Positions 8,199 to 63,350 of a stretch of DNA of 64,000 bases are shown piece by piece; the stretch's first letter is position 1, and every line of letters starts with the position of its first letter. The stretch spans positions 1 through 64,000 of IMG/VR virus record IMGVR_UViG_3300000062_000001. The stretch is one strand, 5' to 3'. This stretch comes from a virus. The notes below the pieces were generated by a model. That model ran no database searches. It was not told the origin of the DNA and worked only from the letters and a program-made list of their open reading frames with translations. Position numbers and translations under genes: made by a program.

Positions 8199-8206
8199 AC
8201 TTTATA

Positions 8207-18115: not shown

Positions 18116-18348
18116 ATATTATTTAAAATTGTTTCTAATATTTTTTTAAATTCACTATGATTTATTCTCTCTTTCTTTTCACAAAGCATATTTAAATGTT
18201 TTCCTGTAGTTCTAGACCATATATTTTCAGAAACATAAAATTTTTGATATACAGCAAACGCTACTATTGTTTTATATGAAAAATAAAAAGAAGCATAATT
18301 TACAGTAACTTTATTAAAATTATTGCAAAGATTATCTAAAGAAATCAT
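18112..18348 (-). CDS. hypothetical protein
   Basis: 78-aa ORF ending in TGA, in an ATGA overlap with the nrdJ start. Confidence 0.5.
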   Translation of the reverse strand: MISLDNLCNNFNKVTVNYASFYFSYKTIVAFAVYQKFYVSENIWSRTTGKHLNMLCEKKERINHSEFKKILETILNNI

Positions 18349-19508
18349 ACTTGGACAACACGTTTATTAATTACATTCTTAGCAGTATTTAAAATAGTAC
18401 CTATACTCTTTATACTGCAAGAATCTATGACATTATATATTCTTCTGTCTGATATACTAAGATCTTTAATATACTCTTCATTCTCTTTAATTAATTCCTT
18501 TAAATTTTCTACAGAAGATTTAAAATAATCTACATCATAATTTAGTAATAAATCGGGTTTATAATCTGTTTCAGTGCACATAATAAACATTTCTGAAACT
18601 CTCATTTTTGCAGTATCTGATGTTGGTACTGACCTCACTTTGGATGGATTTACTAAAACTACAACCTTAGTATCCCCAAATGATCCATAATTATATTTTT
18701 TGCTGGCTGCATGAAGGCCCTTACTACAATCTATTTGGTTGTTAAGATCTACCTCACTTTCTTCTATTTTGTATACTGAACCAATTCTAATGTCCATAGA
18801 ACGTGTGTGGGCATCAGTGTATTTATTTGACTCATGTTTATCTAGACTTTTATATGCCTCTTCTAAAGTAGATATATACATCCACTCTTTTCTTCTACAT
18901 ATATCTTTATGTTTTATAATGGGTTCATAGTTCTGCTTAGGGGATCCATAATCTTTATAATCTTTATAAATCACATAATTTGCTGGAGATTTTTTCCATA
19001 ATTTTACTTTAACATAAAAGTCTGAAACAGTTTTAATATAACTATCTTCATTACTTTTCTTAACAATGCTTCTGTAAAGAACTAAATTACCAGACGGTGT
19101 GAGTTGTATACCATTATTTTTTATAAATTTATATAGATCCTCTCTACTTTGTGGAATAGGATTTAATGCACACCAATACCAAAAATTAATTAAAGCTTTT
19201 AATTCCTTACCTTTAAGATATAAAAATTTATGTGCTAATTCTTTTGGGATAGCTAAATTTATTCCTTTCAGATATAAACAACCATTTTTTGTATCAAATA
19301 ACTTTGAGTCTAGTTTATCTAAACTCTTATTTACATCTATTTTTTGTTGAGTATCTGTATCTAAAGTTTTTATTATAGCATCTTCTAATTCGTTTCTATT
19401 AGATTTTATGAGGTCCATAAATTTTTCCTTAGTAACCTCTGTGAAAACAAAAATTTTGCCATTATTTATAATGGTGGCAGAACCATTACTGAAAAATCCT
19501 TTATTCAT
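18345..19508 (-). CDS. hypothetical protein
   Basis: 387-aa ORF ending in TGA, in an ATGA overlap. Confidence 0.55.
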   Translation of the reverse strand: MNKGFFSNGSATIINNGKIFVFTEVTKEKFMDLIKSNRNELEDAIIKTLDTDTQQKIDVNKSLDKLDSKLFDTKNGCLYLKGINLAIPKELAHKFLYLKGKELKALINFWYWCALNPIPQSREDLYKFIKNNGIQLTPSGNLVLYRSIVKKSNEDSYIKTVSDFYVKVKLWKKSPANYVIYKDYKDYGSPKQNYEPIIKHKDICRRKEWMYISTLEEAYKSLDKHESNKYTDAHTRSMDIRIGSVYKIEESEVDLNNQIDCSKGLHAASKKYNYGSFGDTKVVVLVNPSKVRSVPTSDTAKMRVSEMFIMCTETDYKPDLLLNYDVDYFKSSVENLKELIKENEEYIKDLSISDRRIYNVIDSCSIKSIGTILNTAKNVINKRVVQV

Positions 19509-21723
19509 CTTGTTTTATATTATAATATTCATTATTTAACCTTACTTTTTTAAGTTTACAATATTCTACTATTAGATCTTTTGCTCCAGGAATTATTTCT
19601 GAAGAATATGAATATAATTTATAATTAAAGTGTTTCAAAACATCCCAAAATTTTAATATATCTAATACTTTCTCTATTTCAAAATAATCACTATTATATA
19701 GATGATATTCCTCCGCTAATTTTAAAAGCTCTTCCTCTAAATCAGATGGGAAATCTGTTCTTATTGTACAATTTTTACACAGTGTATCAAATTTCTCCAA
19801 CATTGTAAAATGATTCTTACTAAATATATTAATAGCATTTTTGCTTATTAATGCATGGGGGGTAGTTGTATTAAAAATTTCCATACATCTTTTCCTAAAT
19901 TGTAAAACTGTTATTAAATTCTTTATATGGTGACTTTTCTCGAATTTATCCATATGAATGAAATATTTGTTATCTTTTATAAGAGTTAAATCTTTTTGTT
20001 TAATAATAATAGGTTTGTAGTGTTTGCGTTGTATGGGAAACCACAATTTAAAAAATCTATATTTTTTTTGTTCATATTCATCTGGTAAAATATAAATATA
20101 ACATCTCTTAATTGTTTTTAAATCTATTACATTAGATTCAAAAACTAATTTATCATTGGGGCCAACCGTAGGAGGTCTTCCTATTTTACATGATAAAAAT
20201 CCATCAGTCTTTATAGTAAGCTTTTGTGCTTTCTTCTTTTTATTATTCTCCTTTATTACAGCTTCAAATGTTGCAGGAATTACCACATCTTCCCAAGACT
20301 CAGTATATGTATTTAAAAACTCTTTTTCGTACTCTTCATAAATTGATATATATTCATCAAGATCTGAATGGGGAGGGGATTGAAACATAGATTCATAACT
20401 TACATCATTAAAAGCAGTTAAATCTTTTTGTTTACCAAGGTTATAGCCTTTGTATATAAATAGAATAGAACTATATGTATTTGTTAAGTATCTATATTTC
20501 TTAGTTTTCTTTATATGTTGTTTACTATTTTTTAAAATTATTACTTTATCATATTTAAGAAAATTTAATATATGGGGGTGTGGAACACAAGAGGAAGGAG
20601 CCATTGCCACCGCATAATTATGTAAAAATCCAAGTCTATTAGGGCTATAAAATAATGGTAGAGAAAACATTTTCTTTCTAAATATTTCTGGCATATGATT
20701 TACTACAGAAATACCTGAATGTGGTTCTAAATATGAAATATTTATAGTTATAGAAGGTGTTATTTCATAAGCAGTCTTAATAAAAGAAGATTGCTTAAAG
20801 TATACTTTAATGTCTTTACATTCTGTTATACGTTTATTTTGTTCAACTACTAATAAGTTAGCTACTTCCTCAATTTTCTTTTTAAGTATTTCTATGGACT
20901 CTTTTGTGTAAATAATATCTTCTCTCGATTGTATAGGTTCTACTCCTTCATCTAATCCTATTTTTATTGCTATTGGACAGTTTATTATTGACATTCCTAG
21001 TTTACTATAATCTAATGGATAATAAACTTTACCCAGCAAAATATGTAACCGTGAGTCTTCATTTAAAGTTGAATATGCCCACTTTTCATGATCAAATATT
21101 TGATAATCTCCTTCTGCATCATAGTACACATTATGTAGATATGCTATTTGACTTTTAATTTTATCTTGAAAACAATTTAAATCTCCATTGTTTATATATA
21201 CTTTAATTAATGTTCCTGAAGGTTCTAATGTTGACTCAGAATTTAATAAAGTTATTTGACTACCTTTTTCATGTTTATATATCATATATTTATATAATAT
21301 ACCATCATGAACAGTGTCTATAAAGAAACTAGATACATCATAGGCTAGTGCAGTTTTTGCCCCTAGACCAAAACATCCTATAAAATCATTAGATTTTCTT
21401 TTAGTGGATGCCCCGTAAAGAGCTACTACATTATTCATTCTATGTGGAGATATCCCAACACCCGAGTCTTTCACATAAAAATATTGTTTATGATTTTCGT
21501 CTGAACTAATACCTGTTAAGACAGGGTCTTTACTCCCACTCTCTTCATTTGCATCTATAGCATTAGATATATATTCTCTAATTAAAGAACCGATGGGATC
21601 TTTATATAATCCTGATGTAACCATTCTGATTAATGTGCTGGAATCTGATGTATCTATTGACATCAATATAGCTTTTTGATCTAACAAATCTACTACATCA
21701 TTCAATTTTTCATTAAGTATCAT
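19501..21723 (-). CDS. GHKL-superfamily (Hsp90-like) ATPase domain protein
   Basis: N-terminal Bergerat-fold motifs REYISNAIDA, VKDSGVGIS and GCFGLGAKTA. 740 aa. Confidence 0.6.
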   Translation of the reverse strand: MILNEKLNDVVDLLDQKAILMSIDTSDSSTLIRMVTSGLYKDPIGSLIREYISNAIDANEESGSKDPVLTGISSDENHKQYFYVKDSGVGISPHRMNNVVALYGASTKRKSNDFIGCFGLGAKTALAYDVSSFFIDTVHDGILYKYMIYKHEKGSQITLLNSESTLEPSGTLIKVYINNGDLNCFQDKIKSQIAYLHNVYYDAEGDYQIFDHEKWAYSTLNEDSRLHILLGKVYYPLDYSKLGMSIINCPIAIKIGLDEGVEPIQSREDIIYTKESIEILKKKIEEVANLLVVEQNKRITECKDIKVYFKQSSFIKTAYEITPSITINISYLEPHSGISVVNHMPEIFRKKMFSLPLFYSPNRLGFLHNYAVAMAPSSCVPHPHILNFLKYDKVIILKNSKQHIKKTKKYRYLTNTYSSILFIYKGYNLGKQKDLTAFNDVSYESMFQSPPHSDLDEYISIYEEYEKEFLNTYTESWEDVVIPATFEAVIKENNKKKKAQKLTIKTDGFLSCKIGRPPTVGPNDKLVFESNVIDLKTIKRCYIYILPDEYEQKKYRFFKLWFPIQRKHYKPIIIKQKDLTLIKDNKYFIHMDKFEKSHHIKNLITVLQFRKRCMEIFNTTTPHALISKNAINIFSKNHFTMLEKFDTLCKNCTIRTDFPSDLEEELLKLAEEYHLYNSDYFEIEKVLDILKFWDVLKHFNYKLYSYSSEIIPGAKDLIVEYCKLKKVRLNNEYYNIKQDE

Positions 21724-28113: not shown

Positions 28114-29317
28114 CATTTTGTTATCTTAGAGGCTCTTTATCCCCTAATTCTACATTTTCATTTTGTTATATATGTAGTTCAGACTATATCATCACTATAA
28201 AATATAGTGTCTCACGCTCGTGTTTTTTCATCTTATATTTCTACTTAGATTACTAAATTAGTCGTTGAACCTTTTTATTGTTTCCAATAAACTTGGCTGC
28301 TGATTATCTTCTTCAAGACTTTCCAGCAATTCATGAGATTTTACAAGGACTTTAACACTTGTAAATTAATTTTATAATACATAGATTCTAATAATTCTGG
28401 AAAAATAATTGAAACAAATTTTTTAAAATCTTTTATTGATAAATAAATAGAATTATTATTAAATTTAGTAAAAGTAAGATTGAATCTTTCTTTCATAAAA
28501 TTTATAAGTAATTTTATTTCTAAATCATTAAAACAGCATGTAGCTATTGATACTGAATTAGATTGTTTTGAACCATCATCCATAAAAAAATATGTTAATG
28601 ATACTTCATCAAAATTATCTAAATATTCTTTAGTTATACATTTCTTGTTATTAAGATATAATTGATTATAAATTTTTAAATAATATGGATTTGCAGAACA
28701 ATTTATCCAATATCCTTCATAATATATTCCATTTCTTGAATCTGGTGTATTCCTTTTTCTATATTTAAATTTTGCACCCAATGATTTTAAAATTTCATAT
28801 TTATGATAAGCATATTCTTGTTGTTTTATTCCATGTCCACAAACAAAATCTGGATTTATACAGTTTTTACCTATTCTAAGAGAACTATCTCCTAATAAAG
28901 TTCCATATAACATACTTTTTTGATAAGGAGTAGCCTCTATCATTTTAGCAATATTATAATTTTCTCTATAAAAAGAGTTCTTTATTCTCGCTGCATATAT
29001 CCCACTTTCTTTAACATTAAACTTTTCTGCTATTTCTTTATCCGTTAAACCTTTTTCAACTAACTGTTTCAATTCTGTAATTGGGATTTTTCTCCCTAAA
29101 CCTTGTTTATAATTGGATGGAAAATTATTTTTCTTTCTCCAAGTTCTTATAGATTCATGGTGTTTACCAATTTCTTTTCCTATACGAGCATCACTATACC
29201 CTTTTTGATATAACTCGTTAATTATTAATTCTTTTTCTATTGTATTCATTTTACTTTTATTTAAGTATTTTTACAAATATAAGTAAAATATTTTTAATTT
29301 ACAAATTTTTTTACCCT
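28114..29317 (-). mobile_element. group I intron in the helicase gene
   Basis: Core elements, sense strand: P gaattgctggaaag (28319-28332), Q aatcagcagcc (28295-28305), R ggttcaacgactaa (28258-28271), S gatgatatagtct (28181-28193). P1 pairs exon aaggaU with GUCCUU (28345-28350), and P10 pairs uuaaa with exon 2 uuuaa. The spliced frame is continuous (292 + 77 codons). Confidence 0.8.
28341..29249 (-). CDS. intron-encoded LAGLIDADG homing endonuclease with N-terminal HTH repeats
   Basis: LLGDSSLRIG and FFMDDGSKQ dodecapeptide motifs, plus two HTH-like repeats (YSDARIGKEIG and LTDKEIAEKFN). Confidence 0.8.
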   Translation of the reverse strand: MNTIEKELIINELYQKGYSDARIGKEIGKHHESIRTWRKKNNFPSNYKQGLGRKIPITELKQLVEKGLTDKEIAEKFNVKESGIYAARIKNSFYRENYNIAKMIEATPYQKSMLYGTLLGDSSLRIGKNCINPDFVCGHGIKQQEYAYHKYEILKSLGAKFKYRKRNTPDSRNGIYYEGYWINCSANPYYLKIYNQLYLNNKKCITKEYLDNFDEVSLTYFFMDDGSKQSNSVSIATCCFNDLEIKLLINFMKERFNLTFTKFNNNSIYLSIKDFKKFVSIIFPELLESMYYKINLQVLKSL

Positions 29318-35286: not shown

Positions 35287-35320
35287 AATATGATGTTTTT
35301 AATTATTTAATTATTTAAAG

Positions 35321-35688
35321 TGGAGGTGCAGAGATTCGAACTCTGGTCTTACAATATTTCTTTATTAAAACTTTTACATGTTTATTCAGTTTATTAACTG
35401 ACAAAATAGGGCTGAATGGTTTTAACATTCAACTTCCACCAATTAGTTTTTATTTAGAGATAAACTAACAAACTGTCTCCTGCTCCAATTTTTATATCTT
35501 AGGTATGATATTACTATTTCCTGTTTCTAAGCATAGATGCTCAACTACTATGCAGCTAATCTATAAGCTGTCTGAGTAGAAGGAGTTAAATTAATAACCT
35601 TGCCTTTTATAGTTTACTATTTTAAGGTATAGTTACCTTTACATGATTTTAATACTTACTCTATTATAATCTAACCCATACCACCCCC
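35321..35688 (-). ncRNA. ssrA: tmRNA (ssrA-like transfer-messenger RNA)
   Basis: The 5' GGGGGUG pairs with the 3' CACCUCC, including a G3:U70 wobble (the alanine identity pair). T-arm CAGAG-UUCGAAU-CUCUG preceded by GAC. P2 pairing UUAUAAUA/UAUUGUAA. Candidate resume codon GGC at RNA position 85 (35604). Tag frame GKVINLTPSTQTAYRLAA followed by TAG TAG (35545-35550), which sits inside hairpin GCATAG...CTATGC. 368 nt, CCA not encoded. Confidence 0.8.
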
Positions 35689-36070
35689 ATGAAATTTAAA
35701 AATAAAGTAAATGCTCTAACTAACTGAGCTATGCAGATTAGTATATCCATAGGTGTTATCGTTTAATCACTATGCTTCTACATCTCGACCATTATTACTA
35801 ATCCCCACAAAGATTTGCACTTCGGACCTTTTACTTTATAAAAAACTATCTAACCCACATTTGTTAGAGTGGAATATTAATACTATTATTCACATATTGT
35901 CTAATATGTAAAATCAATGACTACTTAATTCATCCATAGGGATATTAATACATTACAATAAACAACATCTGCTAACTACAGATTAATACAAACAATTATC
36001 GTTTCCTGTCTCACAGCTCAATTAAAGTTTATAATATGTTTATCTTCATTTAGATAGTTTAAATGATTAA

Positions 36071-36104: not shown

Positions 36105-36383
36105 TTAAACCCAACCAAATTCCTTTTTTAATACTTTCAATTCTTTTGCTCCATCTTCAAGGTTTAAAAGAGTATTCTTTGCATTAACTATAGCTAATGA
36201 ATCTAATGGATAAGTTGTTTTAAGATCTTCATATGTAGCTCTAGCTTTCACTACTGATTGTTCTGTAGCTAAGAGATCCGATTGTAACTGTAATTTTGCT
36301 TCTGCTACTTTGAAGGTTATGTCCTGTTGGTTTATCACATCCTGTGATAACACTTCTCCTGTTTTGTAATTGATTTTCAACAT
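36105..36383 (-). CDS. hypothetical protein
   Basis: 92-aa ORF with natural composition. Overlaps the 3' end of 36241..37242 by 143 nt. Confidence 0.5.
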   Translation of the reverse strand: MLKINYKTGEVLSQDVINQQDITFKVAEAKLQLQSDLLATEQSVVKARATYEDLKTTYPLDSLAIVNAKNTLLNLEDGAKELKVLKKEFGWV

Positions 36384-37242
36384 TTCTTTCTTGTTTTAAA
36401 TTATTATTTTCAATTGGTTCTTTTATTTTTTGACAAAGTACTTTATTTAATTCAGTAACTGAATCTTTCTTTTTAAAAGTATACTTACTTTTAAAATCTT
36501 CAACATTACAATATTGTAATGCCTTGTGTTCAGTTCTACTAAAAGTTAAATAGAATCCATTTTTCTCATCTTTTTGAGTAATTATTAAATATATATTATG
36601 ATCTAGATTAATAAAATTATCTTCAGAAACATCTGTTCCATCAATCCATTTTATATTATTAAAATAAGTATTGAAATAATTTGCGAATTCTTTCCATTCT
36701 TCTTTTAAAATTTTTATTGAATGTAATTTTCTATTTTGATCTATATCTTCATTTACTACAGCACATAGTTTCTTTTCAAATAGTAATTTATGTACTTTCC
36801 ATCCAAAAAATGAATTAAAACTACATTCTATAGTATTAATCTCTAAATCTTTAACATAATAATTTTTATTACTATTTATTGATTCATATAGACCTTCCCA
36901 AAATTGTTCTCTAGCCATATATTTAATCATTAATAAGTCTATATCTCTATTAAATATTATAATATCTCCTCGGTTAAATGTAAATTTCTCTATAAATTTT
37001 TTAGAAGTAATAAAATTTTTTTGAGAACGACTATAAGTATCTGTAAATAGATAATGGTAACTAAATTTAAGATCATCAATATCTATATATATTATTACTT
37101 TAGAACAAATTTTACTTTCAAAAAGATTATGAGTTAATTTTATAGCATTATTTTTACATTTGAAATCAAAATTTTTTACCCAGAAGTCATAAAACTCTGA
37201 ATAATCTTCTCTCTTAACTACTATTTTATATAAACTAGTCAT
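36241..37242 (-). CDS. hypothetical protein (3' end uncertain)
   Basis: 333-aa ORF whose last ~47 aa lie in the overlap and look low-complexity. Confidence 0.5.
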   Translation of the reverse strand: MTSLYKIVVKREDYSEFYDFWVKNFDFKCKNNAIKLTHNLFESKICSKVIIYIDIDDLKFSYHYLFTDTYSRSQKNFITSKKFIEKFTFNRGDIIIFNRDIDLLMIKYMAREQFWEGLYESINSNKNYYVKDLEINTIECSFNSFFGWKVHKLLFEKKLCAVVNEDIDQNRKLHSIKILKEEWKEFANYFNTYFNNIKWIDGTDVSEDNFINLDHNIYLIITQKDEKNGFYLTFSRTEHKALQYCNVEDFKSKYTFKKKDSVTELNKVLCQKIKEPIENNNLKQERNVENQLQNRRSVITGCDKPTGHNLQSSRSKITVTIGSLSYRTISSES

Positions 37243-41193: not shown

Positions 41194-41265
41194 GTAGCGG
41201 AGGTTAGAATCGAACTAACTACTTCAAGATTATGAGACTTGATTTCTACCATTGAATTACTCCGC
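41194..41265 (-). tRNA. tRNA with anticodon CAU (Met, or Ile2 if lysidine-modified)
   Basis: Hand-folded cloverleaf. T-arm GUUAG-UUCGAUU-CUAAC, anticodon loop CUCAUAA, D-loop with GG, six acceptor pairs plus a U:U at 1:72. Confidence 0.7.
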
Positions 41266-41472
41266 ATTATTAAAAAGGAACTAACATACTTAAGTAATGT
41301 TGCTCTTCTACCAAAAAATGAAATTTTTATGCTAGTTCCTTAATGTGTGTAAATTCAAAGGAGAGTTAAATCACATTCCTCCTCTTCATTTATATCATCT
41401 TCGTAATGACGATTTACCAATGCTGTTTCTCTAAAATAACTATCCATTGATAGAATTCTTTCGATAGTTTTT

Positions 41473-43882: not shown

Positions 43883-44404
43883 CATTGTCTATATTTTGAT
43901 GGAGAAATATCTCCCCCTTTAATTAGATTTGCAAAAGGGGTAGAAGTTGGGTTGTAACTCCTGTATGATGATTACAGAAATAGGGAGTGAGTTGTCCCCA
44001 ATAAGACACAAATTGCTTAGATATAAACTGGTTCTCTCACCAATCCATTGAGAAAAGGTACAGGTAAAGAGAGCTAGGGGTATAAACAGGGGGTATGAAT
44101 ATGTATAGGGACCTGAACAAGACAAGAACTATACTGAGCTTCATATCTATATAAGACGGGCCAGGGAAATTCTAAGTTAAATTGGGCATAGAGAAATCTA
44201 TTTATATCTGGAAATCATCTAAAGATATAACACTATAGCAGTCATAATGCTATTAAATAGTGGCTTAGCTCCAAACTTTTTTAATTAAAGGCTTGGTCTT
44301 AGGAAAATCTATATCCTTTTGTGAAGGATTAAAACCCTAATATATGTATTGAGTATTAAAGAATTAAAAGAATATTTTGATTAAAATTAAATATAGAGAT
44401 TAAA

Positions 44405-44719
44405 ATGAGTAAAGAGAGATTAAAAAAGTCTAGGGAGAAGTTAACTTCTATAGATGAAAGTAGAAAAGATTTAAGAGTTATAGTAGAAATGAATATATCT
44501 TCTACAGAGATTAAAGGTATGTTAGTTGATGAAGAAGATAAGGGTAATATATTTGAGTTTGAGATTGGATATCACTATTATGAAAATTATGATGAAGATG
44601 GTAAGTTGATAGCTGCTGGTATAACTAATTCATATGGATCAAACTTGAATGAAATTAATCAAGCTGATCCAAGATTAAATGAAATTATATTAAGGACTTT
44701 AGAGGTTAAATATGAGTAA
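44405..44719 (+). CDS. hypothetical protein
   Basis: 104-aa ORF, first gene of the plus-strand block, with no TGA. Confidence 0.55.
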   Translation: MSKERLKKSREKLTSIDESRKDLRVIVEMNISSTEIKGMLVDEEDKGNIFEFEIGYHYYENYDEDGKLIAAGITNSYGSNLNEINQADPRLNEIILRTLEVKYE

Positions 44720-44966
44720 TACTAAAAAGGAATTTAGTAAAGGATTAACTGTATTCTTAATTGCTTTTGGTATAGCATGTATAGTTGCTAGTTATGTATT
44801 AGCTTTTATGAATAATACTTCAGTTAATGAGGGTGTAACTATAGCTGTAATCAGTCAGATATTAGTGACACAAGTGTCCTATTTTACTTATCAATATAAG
44901 TTAAAGGATTCAAGGAATAGGAATGGTGTAGATGAATATGGTGTACCATATGATACAGGTAGTTAA
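44712..44966 (+). CDS. small two-helix membrane protein
   Basis: 84-aa ORF with two hydrophobic helices. Confidence 0.5.
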   Translation: MSNTKKEFSKGLTVFLIAFGIACIVASYVLAFMNNTSVNEGVTIAVISQILVTQVSYFTYQYKLKDSRNRNGVDEYGVPYDTGS

Positions 44967-45057
44967 AATAATTTATAGTATTTAACATTATTTAACTAAA
45001 AATATTTGGTAGATATAAAAATTATATTTACTTTTGTATCAAATAAAAATTAAAAGT

Positions 45058-45258
45058 ATGAGTAGAATTAAGAATTGGTTTAAAGAAGAATTGGGGTTAA
45101 AGATTATAGTGGTGTTAAGTGCAATTGGTTTAGTAACTTTGATTACTTTGTTTGTTACTTCTGATACTAATGATAATACTAAGAAAACTAGTATAGAGGT
45201 TGTAGAGACAGTTGAGGTAACAGAAACAGTTGCTGTTGATAGTTTGATTGTGAATTAA
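45058..45258 (+). CDS. small membrane-anchored protein
   Basis: ATG at 45058, in frame with the track ORF that starts at TTG 45034. One TM helix. Confidence 0.45.
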   Translation: MSRIKNWFKEELGLKIIVVLSAIGLVTLITLFVTSDTNDNTKKTSIEVVETVEVTETVAVDSLIVN

Positions 45259-45304
45259 AATTATTTGTTATAAGGACTGGGGGATACCTGGTCCTTTAAA
45301 TTAT

Positions 45305-45375
45305 GGGTTTGTGTTGTAAGAGTAGCAAATTAGTCTTCAAAACTAAGAGTCAGGGAGCGTAGCCTTGCAAACCCG
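45305..45375 (+). tRNA. opal suppressor tRNA, anticodon UCA (reads UGA; Trp identity inferred)
   Basis: 71-nt cloverleaf. Acceptor GGGUUUG/CAAACCC, D-stem UUGU/GCAA, anticodon stem UUAGU/ACUAA, loop CU-UCA-AA (anticodon 45337-45339), 4-nt variable loop, T-stem CAGGG/CCUUG, discriminator G. The T-loop AGCGUAG is non-canonical. Confidence 0.75.
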
Positions 45376-45400
45376 CAGTAATTAATTAATAATTAATAAG

Positions 45401-46000
45401 TTGAAAAATAATGCTATTTGGAGAGAACAGATTTTAGAGTTAAGGAATCAAGGTAAATCCTATAGGATGATCACTAAGATTCTTAAATGTTCATCATCTA
45501 CAGTTGCTTATAACTGTAATAAAGAGGTTGAAGAGAAAGTCAAGAGTAGAATGGCTTATAGAAGGGGTGATAACAAATTGACTTGGAAACTAAAACTACA
45601 AAAGCAAGTAAGTAGTTTTAATTATAGAAAGGCTGGGAAAGGACACGGGGAATATAACAAGGATTGGAATAAAAAATTAAGGACATCATATTCTACATTT
45701 ATGAATAGGGGAAGTAAAAATACTAGTAAGGTTTCATACAAAGCAGTTATAGAAAAATTTGGTTTAAGGACCAGATGTTATTTAACAGGTAAGAAAATTG
45801 ATTTAACTAAGGATGATTATTCTTTTGATCATATAGTTCCTGTAGCTAAAGGTGGAGAAAATACATTGGATAACTTAGGTATTACTATACCTATAGTTAA
45901 TAGATCTAAGACAGATTTAACTAAAGATGAATATATAGAGTTGTGTAAAAAAATATTAAAGTATAATGGATATTCAGTTACAAAGAGAAAGAATAGTTAA
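45401..46000 (+). CDS. HNH endonuclease with N-terminal HTH
   Basis: FDHIVPVAKGGENTLDNLGITIPIVNRSK HNH core. TTG start, immediately downstream of the suppressor tRNA. Confidence 0.7.
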   Translation: MKNNAIWREQILELRNQGKSYRMITKILKCSSSTVAYNCNKEVEEKVKSRMAYRRGDNKLTWKLKLQKQVSSFNYRKAGKGHGEYNKDWNKKLRTSYSTFMNRGSKNTSKVSYKAVIEKFGLRTRCYLTGKKIDLTKDDYSFDHIVPVAKGGENTLDNLGITIPIVNRSKTDLTKDEYIELCKKILKYNGYSVTKRKNS

Positions 46001-46253
46001 TGCAGTTAAAGGAGGATACAACTTTAAGGCTATAAAGTTAAGATGTGGTAATCCTTCAGGAAAAGTTATAGCAGAAATTATTAAGGAAGTAGATCCTTAT
46101 ATGTATAGTATATTAAATGATACAGTTGCTCTTAAAAGGTATAGGGATAAATTATATGAGAAGTATTTAGAATCAGAATATAATATATCCACATATAAAA
46201 GTGAAACTACAGGATTAACCTATCGTGTTAAGAAAGACCCAATTTATGATTAA
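45966..46253 (+). CDS. hypothetical protein
   Basis: 95-aa ORF. Confidence 0.5.
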   Translation: MDIQLQRERIVNAVKGGYNFKAIKLRCGNPSGKVIAEIIKEVDPYMYSILNDTVALKRYRDKLYEKYLESEYNISTYKSETTGLTYRVKKDPIYD

Positions 46254-46255
46254 AA

Positions 46256-46585
46256 GTGGTAATGAAGGAGTATAAAATAAACTGGTATAAAGTAAGACAT
46301 ATAAACAATGAATATGGTTGTTATATCTTAGCTGAAGGAGTAAGGGACGCTAAAAGAAGATTTAAAGACAATGAATTGAACAATTTTCCTACAATAAGTG
46401 GATTAAAATATGATAGAATAGAGGAATATTGGAATAAGGAATATTTAGCAGCTTTTAATGAGTATTATAAAGAAGATAATATACTAGTAACAATTTGGGA
46501 TGAATTAACTCTTGAAGATGAAAGAAGGGCTATAAATATGTGGAAACAAGAACTTAGGTATAGATATATAAAAGAAAGAGAATAG
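46256..46585 (+). CDS. hypothetical protein
   Basis: 109-aa ORF. The likely ATG is at 46262. Confidence 0.5.
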   Translation: MVMKEYKINWYKVRHINNEYGCYILAEGVRDAKRRFKDNELNNFPTISGLKYDRIEEYWNKEYLAAFNEYYKEDNILVTIWDELTLEDERRAINMWKQELRYRYIKERE

Positions 46586-46587
46586 TT

Positions 46588-46869
46588 ATGAAGGAAAGAA
46601 TTTATGTTGTATGGCATATTAATAATGGAAAACATTACAATAAAACTTATAAAGAAGCTGAATGGAATGGTTGTGCTTACTGAGTTACAGCTTCTAATAG
46701 GGGAATAGCTAAAGATAGAGCAATACAACATTTCTTTATAGATAACTGTCCATTAGATTATATCAATACTTTTTCTAATATGACCGTGGAGGAATTTTTT
46801 GATAAGAAAAATTTAAAAGTGTCTTATATAAAAAAATATGATTATTTAAATTATGGATTAGATATTTAA
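46588..46869 (+). CDS. hypothetical protein, first gene containing an in-frame TGA
   Basis: ATG 46588, TGA 46681-46683 in frame, TAA 46867-46869. Reads ...EAEWNGCAY-W-VTASNRGIAKDR... Confidence 0.5.
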
Positions 46870-46881
46870 AAAAGTTGATAA

Positions 46882-46953
46882 GGTTGTTTAGTATAACGGA
46901 TAATATATTTCTCTTCTAAAGAAATGATGGTGGTTCGATTCCATCAACAACTA
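46882..46953 (+). tRNA. tRNA-Arg (anticodon UCU)
   Basis: 72-nt cloverleaf. Acceptor GGUUGUU/AACAACU, anticodon stem UUUCU/AGAAA, loop CU-UCU-AA, T-arm GGUGG-UUCGAUU-CCAUC. Confidence 0.8.
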
Positions 46954-46968
46954 CAAAATAAATTAATT

Positions 46969-47295
46969 ATGAGAATAATAGAAAGAAATGGGTTCCCAAT
47001 ACCTAAGGGGTATATAGGTATAACATTATGGCCATTTGGGATATATGTGATACCTAATATAAAGAATAGTTATACTGTGAATCATGAAAAGATTCACTGG
47101 GCACAGCAGAAGGAATTACCTGTGTTATTTTATGTACTGTATGGATTATTTTATATAGTTAACTTATGTAGATACAAGTTTGATACAAAGAAAGCTTATT
47201 ACGCAATTCCTTTTGAGATAGAAGCATATATTCAAGAAGATAATACAGAGTATTTACAAGAAAGATATGATTATGCATGGCTTAAATATATATAA
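46969..47295 (+). CDS. small HExxH motif protein (putative zinc metallopeptidase-like)
   Basis: NHEKIHWAQQKE contains HExxH. Start moved to ATG 46969 because the track start at 46924 lies inside the tRNA. Confidence 0.4.
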   Translation: MRIIERNGFPIPKGYIGITLWPFGIYVIPNIKNSYTVNHEKIHWAQQKELPVLFYVLYGLFYIVNLCRYKFDTKKAYYAIPFEIEAYIQEDNTEYLQERYDYAWLKYI

Positions 47296-47300
47296 TAAGT

Positions 47301-47585
47301 ATGGACAGAATAAATATTAGTGACTTAACTTCAGAAAGATATTTAACTTGGTGTAAGAAATATAAGAAGGAGTTGTTAAATGAAGATGGTTTTAAGAGGA
47401 AATTATTTCATAAGTTACACACTTCTGGTAATGGATATAAATTGATAGTATTTATTATAATAAAAGGTGTTCAAGTTCCTCTTCTAGAGATTATTGGTGG
47501 GGATGTAAATGTGTTAGAAGTATTTGATTATTTAGAAAATCATAGCTTAATAGAATTGTTTAAAAATTATAATAGGGAGAAATAA
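47301..47585 (+). CDS. hypothetical protein
   Basis: 94-aa ORF. Confidence 0.5.
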   Translation: MDRINISDLTSERYLTWCKKYKKELLNEDGFKRKLFHKLHTSGNGYKLIVFIIIKGVQVPLLEIIGGDVNVLEVFDYLENHSLIELFKNYNREK

Positions 47586-47586
47586 T

Positions 47587-47952
47587 ATGGATAAATATAA
47601 ATTGTGTGAAGAATATCAAGATGCTTCTATAGACAGTGAATATAATAATATACCTACTTACTGATGTAACTTTTGTAAGTCTTTAGCAATAGGATATTTT
47701 AGTAGTTCAATTGCTGGGGCCCCTACAAATTATTGTATGCACTGTGGGAGTACAGATGTTATTAAGGGGGATATATTTGAATGGGTTAAAATAACTAAAC
47801 CAAAGAAGAGAATATTTAAAAATTTAGTAGAGTACGAAGAATACAAAGCTAGAGTAACAAAGCAAAGAAATTACTTGGCTAAACGTCAGAGTGAAGCTAT
47901 AAGTAAAGAGATTAAAGAAGAGTTAGAATCTTTATATGTTTGAAAAGTATAA
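47587..47952 (+). CDS. zinc-ribbon protein, 121 aa with 2 in-frame TGA
   Basis: ATG 47587, with TGA at 47662 and 47941 in frame. W-CNFC...CMHCG cysteine pairs. Track ORF 47737..47943 is an internal piece. Confidence 0.5.
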
Positions 47953-47983
47953 TAAATAGAAGTTAAATTAAAATTAAATTAGA

Positions 47984-48322
47984 ATGGAAGAAAAAGAGAT
48001 GAAAGGAACAGAGGCTAAAATTAAACAGATGAATACTGTTCCACAAAGTCAACAGAAGTTAACTTATGAACAACTTACAGAGGTAGCTAATCAAGCACAT
48101 CAACAGGCAGAGATGTGGCAGAAAAGGGCTTATGAAGCTGCTTCAAAAAACAGTAGATTGGATATATTGTTTGGTGCATTGGACATGGCTCTTAAATATG
48201 AACAGGCAGGCCTGCATCCTTTTATTAGTATTAATAAGATGGCATCAGAATTAGAGGATATTTTATATCCTTCCAAAGAGATGGGAGAAGAGGAACCACA
48301 ACCTGAACAATCTGGAGAATAA
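47984..48322 (+). CDS. hypothetical protein
   Basis: 112-aa ORF. Confidence 0.5.
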   Translation: MEEKEMKGTEAKIKQMNTVPQSQQKLTYEQLTEVANQAHQQAEMWQKRAYEAASKNSRLDILFGALDMALKYEQAGLHPFISINKMASELEDILYPSKEMGEEEPQPEQSGE

Positions 48323-48327
48323 TAATT

Positions 48328-48714
48328 ATGGCAAAAGGTAATTCAGTTATTATTATTGATGCTAATAAACTGGACTTTTACAAAAACTTTCTTGATTTTC
48401 TCAGACCTATAAGTCCTATAAACAAGTTAAGGAATAAACAGTTATTAATATTAGCTGCTCTTCTTTATAAGAGGAATGATATCTCCAGTAAAGTGGTAGA
48501 TGCTGCTTTGATACCTAAGATATTATTCTCTACAGATGTAAGGGACTCTATAATTAAAACATGTAGCATATCTTTAATGAATTATTATGGGGTTATAGCA
48601 GTATTTAAAAAGCTTGGTATTATTGTTAATGGGGATATAAGTAAGAAAGTTATTCCAGAATTAGAGAATGATAAATTTACTTTAGTAATAGCTTTTAATA
48701 TTAAGGATGAATAA
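48328..48714 (+). CDS. hypothetical protein
   Basis: 128-aa ORF. Confidence 0.5.
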   Translation: MAKGNSVIIIDANKLDFYKNFLDFLRPISPINKLRNKQLLILAALLYKRNDISSKVVDAALIPKILFSTDVRDSIIKTCSISLMNYYGVIAVFKKLGIIVNGDISKKVIPELENDKFTLVIAFNIKDE

Positions 48715-48958
48715 TCTTGAAAAAGTATTTTCAGATGTGGCAGATAAACATAATACTTCTACAGATGTTGTTGAGGGGATTTATAATTCAATGTGAGCAT
48801 TTATGCGTAAAACTATAAAGGAATTACCTGATTTAAAAGGTGTATCAGAGGATGATATAAGTGACTTAAAAACGAATTTTTATATACCTAATTTGGGTAG
48901 GTTTTTTATAGACACTGAAAGAGTTAAGAAGAAAAGAAAATTTAAAAAATTACTATAA
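48707..48958 (+). CDS. hypothetical protein, 83 aa with 1 in-frame TGA
   Basis: ATG 48707, TGA 48794-48796 in frame, TAA 48956-48958 overlapping the next ATG. Confidence 0.45.
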
Positions 48959-49371
48959 TGATTATATTAAAAGATATTAAACCTTTAGGGGATAGTGTTA
49001 TCACTACAGGTAATAGATATAAGGAAGAGTTCACTTCAGGGGGCCTTTTGGATCCTTCAAAGTCGGGACAATTCAAACCCTACCAAACAGTGCTATATAT
49101 TTCAGAACAAGCTTCAATAAGAGGTATAAATGTTGGGGACATTGTAGCAGTAAACTTGTTTAATTACGCAAGACCTGTACAGAGGAAAGATTCATTGAAA
49201 AATGATGTAGATGAATATTATAATGCTTCTTATGCATATCATATTCCTACTATGGATATTAATAGTAAAGAATGTCTTGATTTGAGAATTTGTGATATTA
49301 AGTGTGTTATACTTGATATGACAGATACTGAGGACACTAAAACTAAAAAGAGTAAATTAATATTGAACTAA
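48958..49371 (+). CDS. possible GroES/gp31-like co-chaperonin
   Basis: DIKPLGDSVITT...TSGGLLDPSKSG...NVGDIVAV follows the Cpn10 pattern (KPLGDRV...GG...GD.V). Confidence 0.4.
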   Translation: MIILKDIKPLGDSVITTGNRYKEEFTSGGLLDPSKSGQFKPYQTVLYISEQASIRGINVGDIVAVNLFNYARPVQRKDSLKNDVDEYYNASYAYHIPTMDINSKECLDLRICDIKCVILDMTDTEDTKTKKSKLILN

Positions 49372-49420
49372 TTAATAGCCTTGCTTTAATTAATAGGGCA
49401 GGGCTTTTTACTTTAAAACT

Positions 49421-49663
49421 GTGGAAAACATAATAGAAGGAGTAGAAGATATATATTTGATGCCCCCTAAGTTTTATTTAGAGGTAGAAGATGTGATAGA
49501 TATTGAAAATATAATGCTTAGGGCTGCATTAAGACATGTAAAAGGTTTACCAGATACATTAGAGAGTGATAGAATAGAAGCAGAAATAGCAGAGTATAAA
49601 AAGGCTGTGATGCAAAATGAAACTTACATAAATGAATTTTTAGATGAAATTAATAGAATTTAA
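49421..49663 (+). CDS. hypothetical protein
   Basis: 80-aa acidic ORF with a GTG start. Confidence 0.45.
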   Translation: MENIIEGVEDIYLMPPKFYLEVEDVIDIENIMLRAALRHVKGLPDTLESDRIEAEIAEYKKAVMQNETYINEFLDEINRI

Positions 49664-50171
49664 AAACAATGAACTGACTATTGCAGATGAAGCTTATCAT
49701 ATCAGAGTATTCAAGACTCTTTGGGACAGAGATATTACCAAGGATAAGTCTAGAGCTTTGAGTACTTTTGGGTTTATGTACTTCTATCATCATCCCAATA
49801 GTGATTATAATTATATTATTGATGATGATGAAAAGATACAAGCCATACAAGAAGGGCTTGGAATTGATAACTTAAAATTTTTACAGGATAAAAATTATTT
49901 AAAAGCTGTAGAAGTTTACAAGAAAATGGTGGTTACTACTTCTAGTAAAATACTTGAAACTAACAGAAATAGGATGGAAAAACTTGGTAAATTTCTTGAC
50001 GATTTAGTAATAACAGATGAGAATATGAATAAATACACTAAAGCTATATCAGATATTAATAAATTAGGTGTAGAAATAGCTATGGCTGAGAAAGAGATAT
50101 TCAGGGATATAGAGGAACAGACTGCTAAGGTAAGAGGCAAAGTTGAATTAACAGTAGGAGATATGCTCTAA
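49644..50171 (+). CDS. hypothetical protein
   Basis: 175-aa ORF upstream of terL. A small-terminase role is possible by position only. Confidence 0.5.
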   Translation: MKLIEFKNNELTIADEAYHIRVFKTLWDRDITKDKSRALSTFGFMYFYHHPNSDYNYIIDDDEKIQAIQEGLGIDNLKFLQDKNYLKAVEVYKKMVVTTSSKILETNRNRMEKLGKFLDDLVITDENMNKYTKAISDINKLGVEIAMAEKEIFRDIEEQTAKVRGKVELTVGDML

Positions 50172-50428
50172 TGGAATTAGAACAATTAATAGATAGAATA
50201 AACTTAAAGATATCTGGATTGAATACATTACAGATTGAAAAATCTTTAGATGGTACCTGTATTTATTTGTGTAAAGTTAGATATCCCACAGAAGAAAGAA
50301 TATTACTAGGTGTATTTAGGTATGAAAATAAGGAAATATCTGTAGTAGATTATCTATTACAGATATTAATGACGCAGGTTTATAAACAATGGGAAAATTA
50401 TGACTTGGTTAAAGAGAATTATGAATAG
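50171..50428 (+). CDS. hypothetical protein
   Basis: 85-aa ORF. Confidence 0.5.
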   Translation: MELEQLIDRINLKISGLNTLQIEKSLDGTCIYLCKVRYPTEERILLGVFRYENKEISVVDYLLQILMTQVYKQWENYDLVKENYE

Positions 50429-50543
50429 TAACATGGGTATCTGAGGTTTAAGATGTCCTACATGTAATAGTACAGAAGTTACTGAATTAGAGCACAACAC
50501 TTATATATGTTTATGTTGTAATAAGATATGGAAGAAATTATAA
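50421..50543 (+). CDS. 40-aa zinc-ribbon peptide with 1 in-frame TGA
   Basis: MNSNMGI-W-GLRCPTCNSTEVTELEHNTYICLCCNKIWKKL, with two CxxC pairs. Confidence 0.35.
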
Positions 50544-52861
50544 AAACAAATAGTTATCAAACTAAGATAACTCAAGAATTGTTAGATAGTTTAGGAAAGG
50601 AGGTTCAAGAGGATCTCCTTTTTTATATTAATAATGTACCTTTTATACAGAGATTAATCTCTCCTTCTAGGAAGTATGCTAAAGACTTACAGAGAGATGA
50701 ACGGGGAAGAGTTTTTGTAGACATATCTAATCCTCACATATTAGAGAATATGGATTACTTTAGGGAATCTGCTATTCATTTTCAGAAATATGGGTGTTAT
50801 ACAAAACTTAAAATTAATACCAGTCCTAAATCTGAATATATGAAATGATTTAATAGAGAGTTAGACAGATGTTGAAATGGTATGATTAGAGAAAGTGATG
50901 GGGAATGAATACCTGGAGATTTATATTGGTATCTTAATTATACTATAATGAAACAAACTATAGATAAGAAATTAAAAGATGGTAGAATTATAGAGACTAG
51001 AACTGTGGATATTCCTAAAATGTGAGAAGGTGTTTATTGAAGATTTCATTATTTATATCAATGTAGATCTAGTAAAGCACATGGAGCAGAGGTGTCAAGT
51101 CGTGGAAAATCAAAAAGTTATGTTTTAGCTGCCATGTTATCAAAAATGATTTCTTTGGGTATAGATAATACTTTGTCTAAAAATAGAGCATCTTTAGCTG
51201 TAGCATCTAATAAGGATTATCTAACAAAAAGAGGTCAAGGAGTTCTTGAAAAATTTGAAGATAATATGGATTTTATTACTAAAAATACTCAATTTCCTTC
51301 TAATTTTTCTCAGGCCTCTTTATCTACTATGCAGTGAACTTGTGGTTGAGAGGATCAAGAAAAAATTAAAAGGGGCCCTCAAAATACATTAGCTGGTATA
51401 GCTATAGCTGATGATCCAGATAAATCTCGTGGGTCAAGGGTGGATTTACTTGTAGGGGATGAATTTGGGTGCTTTCCAAACTTTAGTGATTGGTGGGGGG
51501 CATCTATGCCTTCTGTACAAGACGGGGAAAAAATATTTGGATTATTATATGTTACGGGTACAGGAGGAACTGAGGGCACAGATTTTAGTGGTGCATTATC
51601 AATGATTTATTCTCCAGCTTCAAGAAATGTTTTGGGGGTTCCAAATGTGTATGATAGTGGTAGTAAGGGATTAAAAAACACAGTATTCTTTTTTCCTGCT
51701 TATGTTAACTACAATCCTTATTATGATGAAAACGGTGTGTCAGATGTAATAGGGGCTATGGTCAGTGAATTAAAACAACGCTATATTATTAAATATGAAT
51801 CTAATGATCCACTAGAACTTACTAAAAGGAAGGCTGAATTTGCATTTACTTTAACAGATGCAATAATGCGTAGAGATGGGACTATCTATCCAGTTGCTGA
51901 TTTAAATGATAGAATATTTGAACTTGATAATAATCCTGATATACTTAATAGAATGTATCAGGGTAGGCTTAATATGAATGATGGTGCAGTTTCATTTGTG
52001 CCAGATTTAGATTGTAAAGCTATACAAGAATTTCCACACACTAATAATAAAATGGAAGGTTCTGTATATATTAAAAATATGCCCGAAAAGAATAGTGATG
52101 GTAAAGTTCCTTGAGGTAGATATATTGCTGGGTTAGATCCTATAGAAATTGATGGAGAAGCACAAAGTCTATCTTTATTATCCGTATATGTGTTAGATTT
52201 ATGAACAGATGACATTGTAGCAGAATATACAGGAAGATATTTACATACAGAAGATGCCTTTGAAATAGCTAGAAGATTGCTTTTATTTTATAATGCAGAG
52301 TGTTTATATGAAAATAATAAGAAGGGATTTTATTCATATATGTTAAAATATAATTCATTAATGTTGTTGTCTACTACTCTGGATTATTTAAAAGATAAGA
52401 ATTTAGCTAAAGAAAGTTATGGAAACTCTTCATATGGATTTACTGCTACCGCTCCTATAAAGAGTTTAATCAGAAGACATGTTAGGGATTATTTACTAAA
52501 ACCCCATGAATTGTTTGTACAGACTACTGAGGGTGAAGAGACACAAGTTACTGTAAGTAACATTAAAAGAATTTGTTTTAGAGCGTTATTAAAGGAATTG
52601 AGTATGTGAAATGCTGATGGCAACTTTGATAGACATGATGCTTTGGGTGCTTTAATGTTGCTAAGAGAAGCTAAATTAATTTATTACCAAGGCGGAACAG
52701 GGCAGGATAGAACCAATGACAGGGAGTATTTAGGTAATGATAATTTCTTTACAGTTAACTATGATGAAAGAATTAAAAGAGAAACTGATGTTGTAAGGAT
52801 AATGAGGGAGATTGATAAGAAAAACGGTTGAAATACTTATTTAAATACTTCTGAAGTATAA
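50528..52861 (+). CDS. terL: terminase large subunit, 777 aa with 11 in-frame TGA
   Basis: Five track ORFs (50528, 51092, 51440, 52277, 52643) share one frame and are separated only by TGA. Walker A SSRGKSKS, Walker B VDLLVGDEFG, nuclease motif YIAGLDPIE. Confidence 0.8.
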
Positions 52862-52941
52862 ATGTTTCAATTTCTTTAATAGATATACAAGTAATTAAAT
52901 TTATAATTAAATTTGTATTTTAAAATAGTAATAGATAAATT

Positions 52942-55338: not shown

Positions 55339-56423
55339 TGGCAAGTAATAAATTAGAATTTGTACGTTCACATACAGCCCCTCCTACAGTTGAGGGCGCT
55401 GGCTGGGTGGATTTAAATTTCACTCCTCCAGTTGTGAAACAATGGACAGCCCAGGGCTGGGTTCCTCTAGGAAGTGGTGGTGTTCCAGAGCCCTGTCGTG
55501 TTCCTCCTGGAACTGCTGATGGGCAAGTACCTGTTTGGGATCAAACAACGCAAAAATATGTACCTGAAATTCTTTCAATACCAGGTAGTGAAATCTTTCC
55601 TCCTGGAAGTATATATAATTATTCTTCAAATTTAGCTTGATTACCTTCTAATATGGATGTGTCGGGAATGTCAGCTATGGATGTACTTACCCAAATTCTT
55701 TTTGGTTTTAATAATCCTGCTTTCACTTCTTTTAGTCTCTCTGGTAATACTACTTTAGAAGTAGGAGCAAGTATCCCAGCAACTAAAACTTTTACTTGGG
55801 CTGCTACTTATATGGCTAATATTAAACCTAACAGTACAATAATTAGAAATATAACTGATGCTGTCACTTTATTTTCAAATATTACTATAGGTAATCCTTC
55901 TGGTACAGGAACCTCAGGATCTTATTCTGGATCTTCTGCTGTACTTACAAAAAACAGTCCTACATCTGTAGTATTTAGAATAAGCCAAGAAAACACAAGA
56001 GATGTGGTATTTACAAGGGATTATTCAGTAAATTGGTTGTGGCCTATTTATTGAGGCGCTTGAGAGCAATATAATAATGCATGAAGCGCTGGTGGTGGTA
56101 CAGCGTCAAGTATTGTACCTACTTCTTCTGATATTATAGATGATAATAAGGTTTTATCAAATGTTGTCAATGGTCAAGTTTTTAATATGCCTGATGTTAC
56201 AGGTGGGGCTATACGATTTGTAGCTATTCCAGAGGAGCTCCCACAACTTAGAATGATGGTAGATAATAATAACACTATGCCTATAGTATTGAATGGGGGC
56301 TATGACCCAACTTCCCCCATGACTGTACCAATAACTAATAGTTTTGGACTTTCTCATAATTACAAAATTTATTGGACAGCAAATGTTTTAAATGGGTCTG
56401 TTCCTATGAGATTGGTAGTTTAA
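55338..56423 (+). CDS. tail/structural protein, 361 aa with 4 in-frame TGA
   Basis: Track ORFs 55338, 55653 and 56187 share one frame. GC-richer Pro/Gly-rich N-terminus. Shares the DVLT.IL.G...FTW domain with the next gene. Confidence 0.6.
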
Positions 56424-56458
56424 TTTATAATATTTCTTTAACTTTTAATTAAATTTTT

Positions 56459-57865: not shown

Positions 57866-57921
57866 TAATAATCTATAATAAAGGGGATTAATTTCCCCTT
57901 TATTTCAATTAAAATAATAAT

Positions 57922-58578: not shown

Positions 58579-58580
58579 AT

Positions 58581-59339: not shown

Positions 59340-59359
59340 CTATAATACAATAATATAAT

Positions 59360-61819: not shown

Positions 61820-61837
61820 TCTACTAAATCATATAAT

Positions 61838-62200: not shown

Positions 62201-62202
62201 TT

Positions 62203-62823: not shown

Positions 62824-62824
62824 T

Positions 62825-63238: not shown

Positions 63239-63350
63239 TAAACAGCTATAATATAAAAGTAAACTACATTATACTTTTATTAATACATATTGTATTATAG
63301 AATATTTTAAGTTACTTTGTAATAATTTTTAATTAAAGGGAGAAATAATT

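Follow-up and report, generated by a model that had tools for sequence, protein, structure and literature searches.

We analyzed a 64,000-nt stretch of viral DNA (positions 1 to 64,000 of IMG/VR record IMGVR_UViG_3300000062_000001; hereafter the window), in which an initial annotation had placed a phage-encoded transfer-messenger RNA (tmRNA) at 35321-35688 on the minus strand. A complete one-piece tmRNA (ssrA) gene lies at these coordinates, 368 nt long without CCA, and Rfam family RF00023, ARAGORN with relaxed settings and a phage-tmRNA profile agree on it. The Infernal/Rfam search, which had been proposed as a check, returned a significant match to the whole model (1-374) at 35318-35688 (57.3 bits against a gathering threshold of 47, E = 7.9e-20; Table 1), and this is the sole tmRNA match within the window. 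The profile, which summarizes 53 further low-GC phage tmRNAs and was searched with nhmmer on sequence only, matched exactly 35688-35321 (75.7 bits, E = 7e-23); the score is partly due to the terminal motifs by which the 53 sequences were collected, and the internal blocks CAUGUA, AAA-GGC-AA, GCUGC-UA, UGGUGGAA, UCAGCCC and AACAUGU align in the match as well. The minimum free energy (MFE) fold, in which P1, P2 and the T-arm are recovered, has z = -3.06 relative to dinucleotide shuffles (0 of 100 shuffles fold equally well). All features listed in the initial annotation, i.e., the acceptor stem with its G3:U70 pair, the T-arm preceded by GAC, P2, the AAGGUA/UACCUU pairing, the frame starting at GGC and the UAG UAG inside a hairpin, are present base by base. 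We are highly confident that the locus is a tmRNA gene.

The tag frame is marked by several features. In E. coli tmRNA the frame is set by U85 and A86, at positions -5 and -4 relative to the resume codon (PMC2481249). U80 and A81 of the window tmRNA stand at -5 and -4 of the GGC at RNA position 85, matching the E. coli frame-setting positions, and several phage tags called by ARAGORN have the same AUAAAA before their GGC. In both the alignments and the profile, the GGC column and the terminal Ala-Ala-stop columns coincide with those of the called tags of other phage tmRNAs. The GGC 85 frame alone ends in LAA (C-terminus ...YRLAA) with stops inside the P5 loop; as read from the sequence, it is the best supported frame, and it is the one that had been annotated. 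Two other candidates were rejected, namely the +1 frame taken from the Rfam alignment (ARLLI) and the tag VEHLCLETGNSNIIPKI from relaxed ARAGORN: neither has an Ala-Ala end or U-5/A-4, and neither aligns with other tags.

The tag had been described as divergent. Among 40 tmRNAs on phage contigs with an ARAGORN-called tag, tag length has a median of 24 amino acids (aa; range 9-33), GGC is the resume codon in 19, and the stop codon is UAA in 29, UAG in 11 and UGA in none. The window tag, with 18 residues, a GGC resume codon and a UAG stop, is thus ordinary among phage tmRNAs, and the tandem stop is its one uncommon feature relative to the 40-tag set. The accompanying statement that the tag avoids TGA is true to the letter, the stops being UAG UAG; since the 40 compared tags without exception use UAA or UAG, the non-UGA stop of the window tag carries little information. 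Many phage tags are long and conserved within lineages, e.g., GEEKSSFTWEDAMAFIGADYAVAA and DEMSTMTFEDLMAFVGADYAVAA. The native Bacteroides tag is GETNYALAA (bioRxiv 10.1101/2025.03.18.644028). It has the leading G and the Y-x-LAA end in common with the window tag, which looks like an extended form of it, although Bacteroides may not be the host.

Outside the tag, the architecture is that of a one-piece tmRNA. The 7-bp acceptor stem GGGGGUG/CACCUCC joins both RNA ends, with G3:U365 as the equivalent of G3:U70, and the T-loop UUCGAAU is of the UUCRANY type with GAC directly before the arm. The long P2 helix consists of 20-27/333-340 (P2a, 8 bp including one G.U), 35-42/319-326 and 44-48/308-312 (the conserved CAUG pairing), all of them in the MFE fold. 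G12, G13, G18 and A19, which are invariant in both phage tmRNA alignments, are present. The candidate pseudoknot PK1 has the layout of the Rfam consensus, with 6 bp in P3 and 4-5 bp in P4, and is drawn from one sequence without covariation and with very short loops; in the Rfam alignment ACUA is paired with UAGU, and AGG...CCU takes its consensus place. Farther downstream, clear candidates exist for PK3 and PK4, and PK2 is ambiguous, with low Rfam posteriors across PK2-PK4. Local similarity of the PK3 region to other phage tmRNAs is above the null, and the loop of the 8-bp PK4 stem possibly pairs with UUUUG (283-287).

Table 1. Features of the tmRNA gene. RNA position 1 corresponds to window position 35688, and the RNA reads along the minus strand.
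Feature	Window position	Strand	Basis
One-piece tmRNA (ssrA) gene, complete	35321..35688	minus	Rfam RF00023, relaxed ARAGORN, nhmmer phage-tmRNA profile
Acceptor stem P1, 5' strand GGGGGUG (RNA 1-7), including G3 of G3:U70	35682..35688	minus	invariant in phage tmRNA alignment
D-loop analogue GUAUGGGUUAGA, GG and GA conserved, UUAGAU for canonical UUCGAC	35670..35681	minus	Rfam, phage tmRNA alignment
P2a, 5' strand UUAUAAUA (RNA 20-27)	35662..35669	minus	pairs with 35349-35356; in MFE fold
P2b/P2d, 5' strand (UAUUAAAA, CAUGU)	35641..35654	minus	pairs with 35363-35370 and 35377-35381; CAUG/CAUG by Rfam, MFE
PK1: P3 AAGGUA/UACCUU (50-55/60-65), P4 ACUA/UAGU (56-59/70-73)	35616..35639	minus	stem enumeration; Rfam alignment
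Frame-setting hexamer AUAAAA, U-5/A-4 relative to resume codon	35605..35610	minus	same hexamer in ARAGORN-called phage tmRNAs
Tag frame, 18 codons, GKVINLTPSTQTAYRLAA; resume GGC (RNA 85-87) at 35602-35604	35551..35604	minus	sequence; alignment with called phage tags
P5 hairpin (RNA 124-130/151-157 and 133-135/148-150), encloses tag end and stops	35532..35565	minus	stem enumeration; Rfam stop-codon hairpin
Tandem stops UAG UAG (RNA 139-144), loop of P5	35545..35550	minus	sequence, stem enumeration
PK2 region: CUUAG/CUAAG (158-162/187-191), second stem uncertain	35485..35531	minus	stem enumeration; low Rfam posterior
PK3 candidate: GGAGA/UCUCU (209-213/229-233) and GUUAGUUU/AAACUAAU (220-227/240-247)	35442..35480	minus	stem enumeration
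PK4 region: 8-bp stem GUUGAAUG/CAUUCAGC (256-263/271-278), hairpin UCAGUU/AACUGA (288-293/298-303)	35386..35433	minus	stem enumeration, MFE
P2b/P2d, 3' strand (AACAUGUAAAAGUUUUAAUA)	35363..35381	minus	Rfam, MFE
P2a, 3' strand UAUUGUAA (RNA 333-340)	35349..35356	minus	in MFE fold
GAC (RNA 341-343) and T-arm CAGAG-UUCGAAU-CUCUG (344-360)	35329..35348	minus	read from sequence, Rfam
Acceptor stem, 3' strand CACCUCC (RNA 361-367) and discriminator A368 (A73)	35321..35328	minus	read from sequence, Rfam

Several observations weigh against the reading of this locus as a working tmRNA with the tag given above. ARAGORN with default settings called no tmRNA in the window; with -ps it called one at essentially the same coordinates (35688-35320) and reported 'Tag not identified', so that the ARAGORN check suggested by the initial annotation supports the locus under relaxed settings and leaves the tag out. 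The Rfam score (57 bits) is the lowest among the phage tmRNAs compared, the others having 66-82 bits, and the Rfam alignment sets the resume GCA of the model on 86-88, one base later than GGC 85, with a five-residue tag ARLLI as the result. The D-loop analogue UUAGAU deviates from UUCGAC, and the 3' CCA is not encoded, the end reading ...CCUCCA-CUU. A search of GenBank phages, IMG/VR, JGI metagenomes and GTDB species genomes yielded no close relative of the window tmRNA (best 62% identity), and consequently no covariation or tag-conservation evidence for its lineage. The deviations at the two ends of the molecule recur elsewhere: ...GAU at the D-loop analogue is also found in other phage tmRNAs, and an encoded CCA is also missing from several of them. 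An encoded CCA is no strict requirement for the tmRNA family.

The lowest Rfam score among the compared phage tmRNAs and the failure of default ARAGORN could also be read as signs of a decaying passenger, i.e., an ssrA copy from the host or another phage that is no longer functional, and the sporadic distribution of the gene among relatives, together with a tRNA-like fragment directly upstream that hints at past rearrangement, would fit such a history. We find this improbable, because all positions invariant across the phage tmRNA alignments are intact, the frame is open and runs into LAA and then two stops, P1 and P2, which pair over a long range, are perfect or almost perfect, and the G+C content has drifted to the phage's own level. 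The gene has 31% G+C, compared with 25-30% in the surrounding block; given this and the absence of a similar tmRNA from the results of two pattern scans of 185,579 species genomes, it does not have the appearance of a recent capture. A functional, trans-translating phage tmRNA is the probable interpretation of these features.

The tRNA-like fragment (...CAUAGCUCAGUUAGUUAGAGCAUUUACUUUAUUUU; minus strand, 35700-35740) immediately precedes the 5' end of the tmRNA. Its D-arm is of textbook form and its anticodon arm incomplete (possible UAU anticodon), and both the T-arm and the 3' acceptor strand are missing. The fragment resembles the D-arm regions of tRNAs of related phages and may be what is left of a tRNA gene broken on arrival of the tmRNA. 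An intact tRNA upstream of the tmRNA was rejected, since it has no support from the Rfam tRNA model or from ARAGORN and the fragment is D-arm-like only. The fragment also overlaps what may be a -7 element of the Bacteroidetes type (TAAATTTC, from -10 to -3).

A piece of host ssrA may also end up in a phage genome as part of the attP of a temperate phage, ssrA being a common integration site (PMC9004378), and one relative, on contig L093, encodes a tyrosine integrase. Such an attachment-site remnant is essentially refuted by the full-length match: the window gene is complete from G1 to A73 and not a 3' fragment. In addition, there is no integrase near the tmRNA, and pattern scans of species genomes revealed no close bacterial counterpart. 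The integrase of L093 (884-2092) is of Bacteroidetes type (Arm-DNA-bind_5, Phage_int_SAM_5) and adjoins a tRNA, which suggests a temperate lifestyle in that lineage; L093, a 105.9-kb contig whose helicase is 48% identical, belongs to a distant crAss-like relative.

The tmRNA is phage-encoded, as had been annotated. Phage genes lie to either side of it on one 106-kb contig (ENA ERZ27245258, 106,449 bp), and the window encodes TerL, portal, DNA polymerase A, ribonucleotide reductase, rIIA/rIIB and helicase proteins. The contig carries matches to the Pfam families Crass_capsid, CrAss_Ring_3_4 and crAss_AuxCP, with PF23898, PF25710 and PF25650 among its accessions, and TerL is 41-50% identical to that of classified Crassvirales, the closest being cr108_1 (Steigviridae, 50%). 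Judged by its gene content and protein similarities, the genome is that of a ~106-kb crAss-like phage (Crassvirales). Neither SmpB nor a release factor was present in the precomputed Pfam lists or in a Pfam scan of 33-50 kb.

The genome is split between two codes. The early minus-strand block (~2-44 kb; 2000-44000) uses the standard code, with no in-frame TGA in 11,900 codons and TGA as terminator in 5 of its 64 open reading frames (ORFs). The late plus-strand block (44300-64000 and 1-1926) has 53 in-frame TGA and 46 TGG codons, with 11 in-frame TGA in TerL and 9 in the portal gene, and in these two genes they align mostly to W, and otherwise to F, Y or L, in cr108_1. Because in-frame TGA aligns to W in homologs, the TGA-to-Trp recoding of the late genes, which the initial annotation had presupposed, is real; such recoding has already been described in the literature for some crAss-like phages. 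A search for a suppressor tRNA(UCA) that covered ~82 kb of the 106-kb genome, namely the window plus 18 kb flanking it, was negative and revealed just two tRNAs, Met(CAU) (41194-41266) and Arg(UCU) (46882-46954). The tmRNA is located in the standard-code early/replication block, on the same strand as the genes of that block.

Other features of this genome are noted here. Mobile introns or inteins seem common in it: a LAGLIDADG homing-endonuclease ORF is present in the early block (28341-29249, minus strand), and in contig L160, beyond the window, the crAss major capsid gene (4564-9009) consists of four Crass_capsid fragments, broken up by a further LAGLIDADG ORF and by TGA codons. The rIIA- and rIIB-like genes (18345-21723, minus strand; PHROG E = 6e-53 and 1e-23, respectively) adjoin the ribonucleotide reductase gene. 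Upstream of the tmRNA, a 92-aa ORF (36105-36383, minus strand), whose translation is a protein-like coiled coil, overlaps the low-complexity C-terminus of a 333-aa ORF (36241-37242) that is in another frame; either a mis-called gene end or a frameshift may account for the overlap. The 333-aa protein has no relatives in IMG/VR.

We scanned public viral and metagenome contigs with sequence patterns and found ~80 further tmRNA loci with the same acceptor stem and T-loop, many of which adjoin phage tRNA arrays. The comparison set used above comprises 53 unique low-GC phage tmRNAs (L031-L141). Default ARAGORN misses 13 of the 53, and the six ARAGORN-missed phage tmRNAs that were scanned with Rfam have 66-75 bits each. 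Nucleotide searches of GenBank phages with the tmRNA, its 20-kb flank and the L060 tmRNA (below) as queries gave no match, and two pattern scans of 185,579 species genomes yielded no tmRNA similar to that of the window. Patterns with UUAGAU or UUNGAU as the D-loop analogue had 0 matches in species genomes and metagenomes. A looser pattern retrieved phage-like low-GC tmRNAs from metagenomes and, from species genomes, mostly those of high-GC Actinomycetota, none with <50% G+C or >52% identity to the window tmRNA, and no donor lineage was identifiable from these scans. Internal-motif scans for closer relatives found nothing or the L060 type only. Among the nearest crAss-like relatives examined, cr108_1 has no tmRNA in its first 50 kb, and those obtained with the helicase as bait, all of them distant, have none within 10 kb of the helicase gene.

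The L060-type tmRNA is one of the closest comparisons. It is carried by IMG/VR contigs L060, L061, L064 and L161 and by metagenome contigs L108, L112, L118, L119, L132, L133 and L140, several of them from human gut. The contigs are ~100 kb long, their TerL is 44-52% identical to that of the window, and one member has a related helicase (39%), similarities which identify them as crAss-like phages. Their tmRNA shares with that of the window an early-strand location near tRNAs (here tRNA-Ile(UAU) and tRNA-Pro, which adjoin it), the GGGGGUG acceptor strand, ...GAU, a GGC-AAR resume context (so that the tag starts with GK), an LAA end and the motif UUGGUGGAAGUUGA...UCAGCCC. This motif falls in the PK4 region of the window, and the stem that it encloses shows compensatory changes between the L060 type and the window. 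The L060 type differs in overall sequence (~57% identity), in its 29-aa tag GKKISSALNRAKSFILGEIIEGAPVALAA, conserved within the group, with a single UAA stop, in its Rfam score (77 bits) and in a TerL that is not recoded. The L060-type TerL is a single 1123-aa ORF in the standard code without in-frame stops, i.e., there is no sign of recoding in those phages. It holds a ~1.1-kb insertion that may be an intein.

The window tmRNA shares with the bacterial one-piece form (RF00023; E. coli SsrA) the acceptor with G3:U70, the T-arm, a long P2 and a start-less frame after U-5/A-4 that ends in LAA and has its stops inside the P5 loop; a candidate PK1 and other elements resembling pseudoknots are present as well. 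It differs from that form in being phage-encoded, in its 31% G+C, in having UUAGAU instead of UUCGAC, UAG UAG stops and no encoded CCA, and in a PK2 that is not drawable with confidence; its tag has 18 residues, compared with 10 in E. coli and 9 in Bacteroides (GETNYALAA). Phage tmRNAs as a kind are already known and have been on record since the mycobacteriophages of the Bxz1 group. One survey reports tmRNA in 402 of 18,146 phage genomes (~2.3%; PMC9004378); mycobacteriophages and Bacillus phage G are listed in PMC4131195, and huge phages in PMC7162821. The known examples (Bxz1 group, Bacillus phage G, huge phages and Melnitz) have in common with the window a complete ssrA in a lytic-type genome, with no SmpB nearby and often near tRNAs. 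Their carriers are myoviruses, jumbo phages and actinophages (Melnitz being a marine myophage with a two-piece form), whereas the window belongs to a crAss-like, podovirus-type phage with split codes. We found no paper mentioning tmRNA in crAss-like or stop-codon-recoded phages, although crAss-like examples exist in public metagenomes. The benefit of a phage tmRNA has only been hypothesized, either as keeping the hijacked translation machinery running or as tagging of host proteins (PMC9004378; PMC7162821).

A phage tmRNA might act merely as a decoy, soaking up host SmpB, alanyl-tRNA synthetase (AlaRS) or EF-Tu and thereby blocking host trans-translation, e.g., a host response dependent on it. 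Mycobacteriophage DS6A carries little beyond a tRNA-like domain, and a similar molecule strongly inhibits tmRNA, perhaps by SmpB titration (PMC4131195); that no phage SmpB was seen in the annotations and Pfam scan examined is also consistent with a decoy. However, the window RNA retains its messenger part, including the open 18-codon frame, LAA end, P5-loop stops, U-5/A-4, a candidate PK1 and pseudoknot-like elements. A pure decoy would not need this intact messenger part, which makes a decoy highly unlikely.

The initial annotation had further proposed that the tmRNA answers UGA suppression, under which host mRNAs ending in UGA are read through to their 3' ends and the load of non-stop ribosomes rises. 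Taken as an adaptation to recoding, this would mean that with UGA read as Trp late in infection, read-through and stalling increase, and a phage tmRNA rescues the ribosomes or redirects the tagging. The proposal is compatible with the genome, in which late genes are recoded from TGA to Trp (53 TGA vs. 46 TGG, aligned to W) and the tag stops at UAG instead of UGA. Two other tmRNA-bearing lineages point in the same direction, with the caveat that there is no background rate, so that they are not evidence of enrichment: L042/L104 (a 197-kb contig) and L117 (a TARA contig) have a tmRNA (Rfam 71 and 66 bits, respectively) within a few kb of CUA-anticodon tRNAs, i.e., amber suppressors, and are likely TAG-recoded phages that also carry tmRNA. 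Against the proposal, the crAss-like phages of the L060 type carry tmRNA with a TerL free of in-frame stops in the standard code, the avoidance of UGA by all 40 compared tags makes the choice of stop unspecific, and the window tmRNA is located in the early, standard-code block. Moreover, in A+T-rich DNA a ribosome reading past UGA would usually soon meet another stop, and the link rests on a single genome. We consider an adaptation to recoding unlikely; lacking specific support, it is only an idea at present. A broader version, which we hold to be rather improbable, would make phage tmRNAs part of the tool kit of stop-codon-recoding phages, such that in this phage a tmRNA made from the early block clears ribosomes running past or stalled on UGA-terminated host and early mRNAs after the code switch and adds a phage-specific tag that sends the extended products to degradation. 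If true, ribosome rescue would be mechanistically tied to the code switch.

Returning to the interpretation as a functional phage tmRNA, we infer expression, charging, use of SmpB, tagging and benefit from what is shown, namely the gene with its fold, reading frame and phage setting, and from what is established for bacterial tmRNA. With no terminator after the tmRNA and the next gene beginning 35 nt downstream, the RNA is probably processed from a longer transcript; host tRNA-processing enzymes would cut it from the early-block transcript, and CCA would be added afterwards. G3:U70 and the A73 discriminator indicate that host AlaRS should charge it with alanine, and, since the phage DNA examined showed no SmpB gene, host SmpB would be its partner. 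When ribosomes stall at the ends of broken or stop-less mRNAs, the charged tmRNA would accept the nascent chain and translation would switch to GGC 85, so that (A)GKVINLTPSTQTAYRLAA is appended before termination at UAG UAG. In E. coli, a C-terminal LAA is established as the classic degradation signal of the ClpXP type, and the LAA end would direct the tagged product to host proteases. The likely benefit is that ribosomes would be kept free during infection while host mRNA is destroyed.

The finding adds a tmRNA to the accessory translation genes of crAss-like phages, which are among the most abundant gut virus groups. Because default ARAGORN misses the window gene and about a quarter of comparable phage tmRNAs, phage tmRNAs are probably under-counted, particularly in surveys that use ARAGORN only. 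With phage tmRNA already known as a kind, the points of interest are modest, namely the crAss-like, split-code setting and a gene missed by standard annotation. If tmRNAs should prove enriched in recoded phages, this would open a testable way into the question of how such phages manage the disorder that their own code switch brings to translation.

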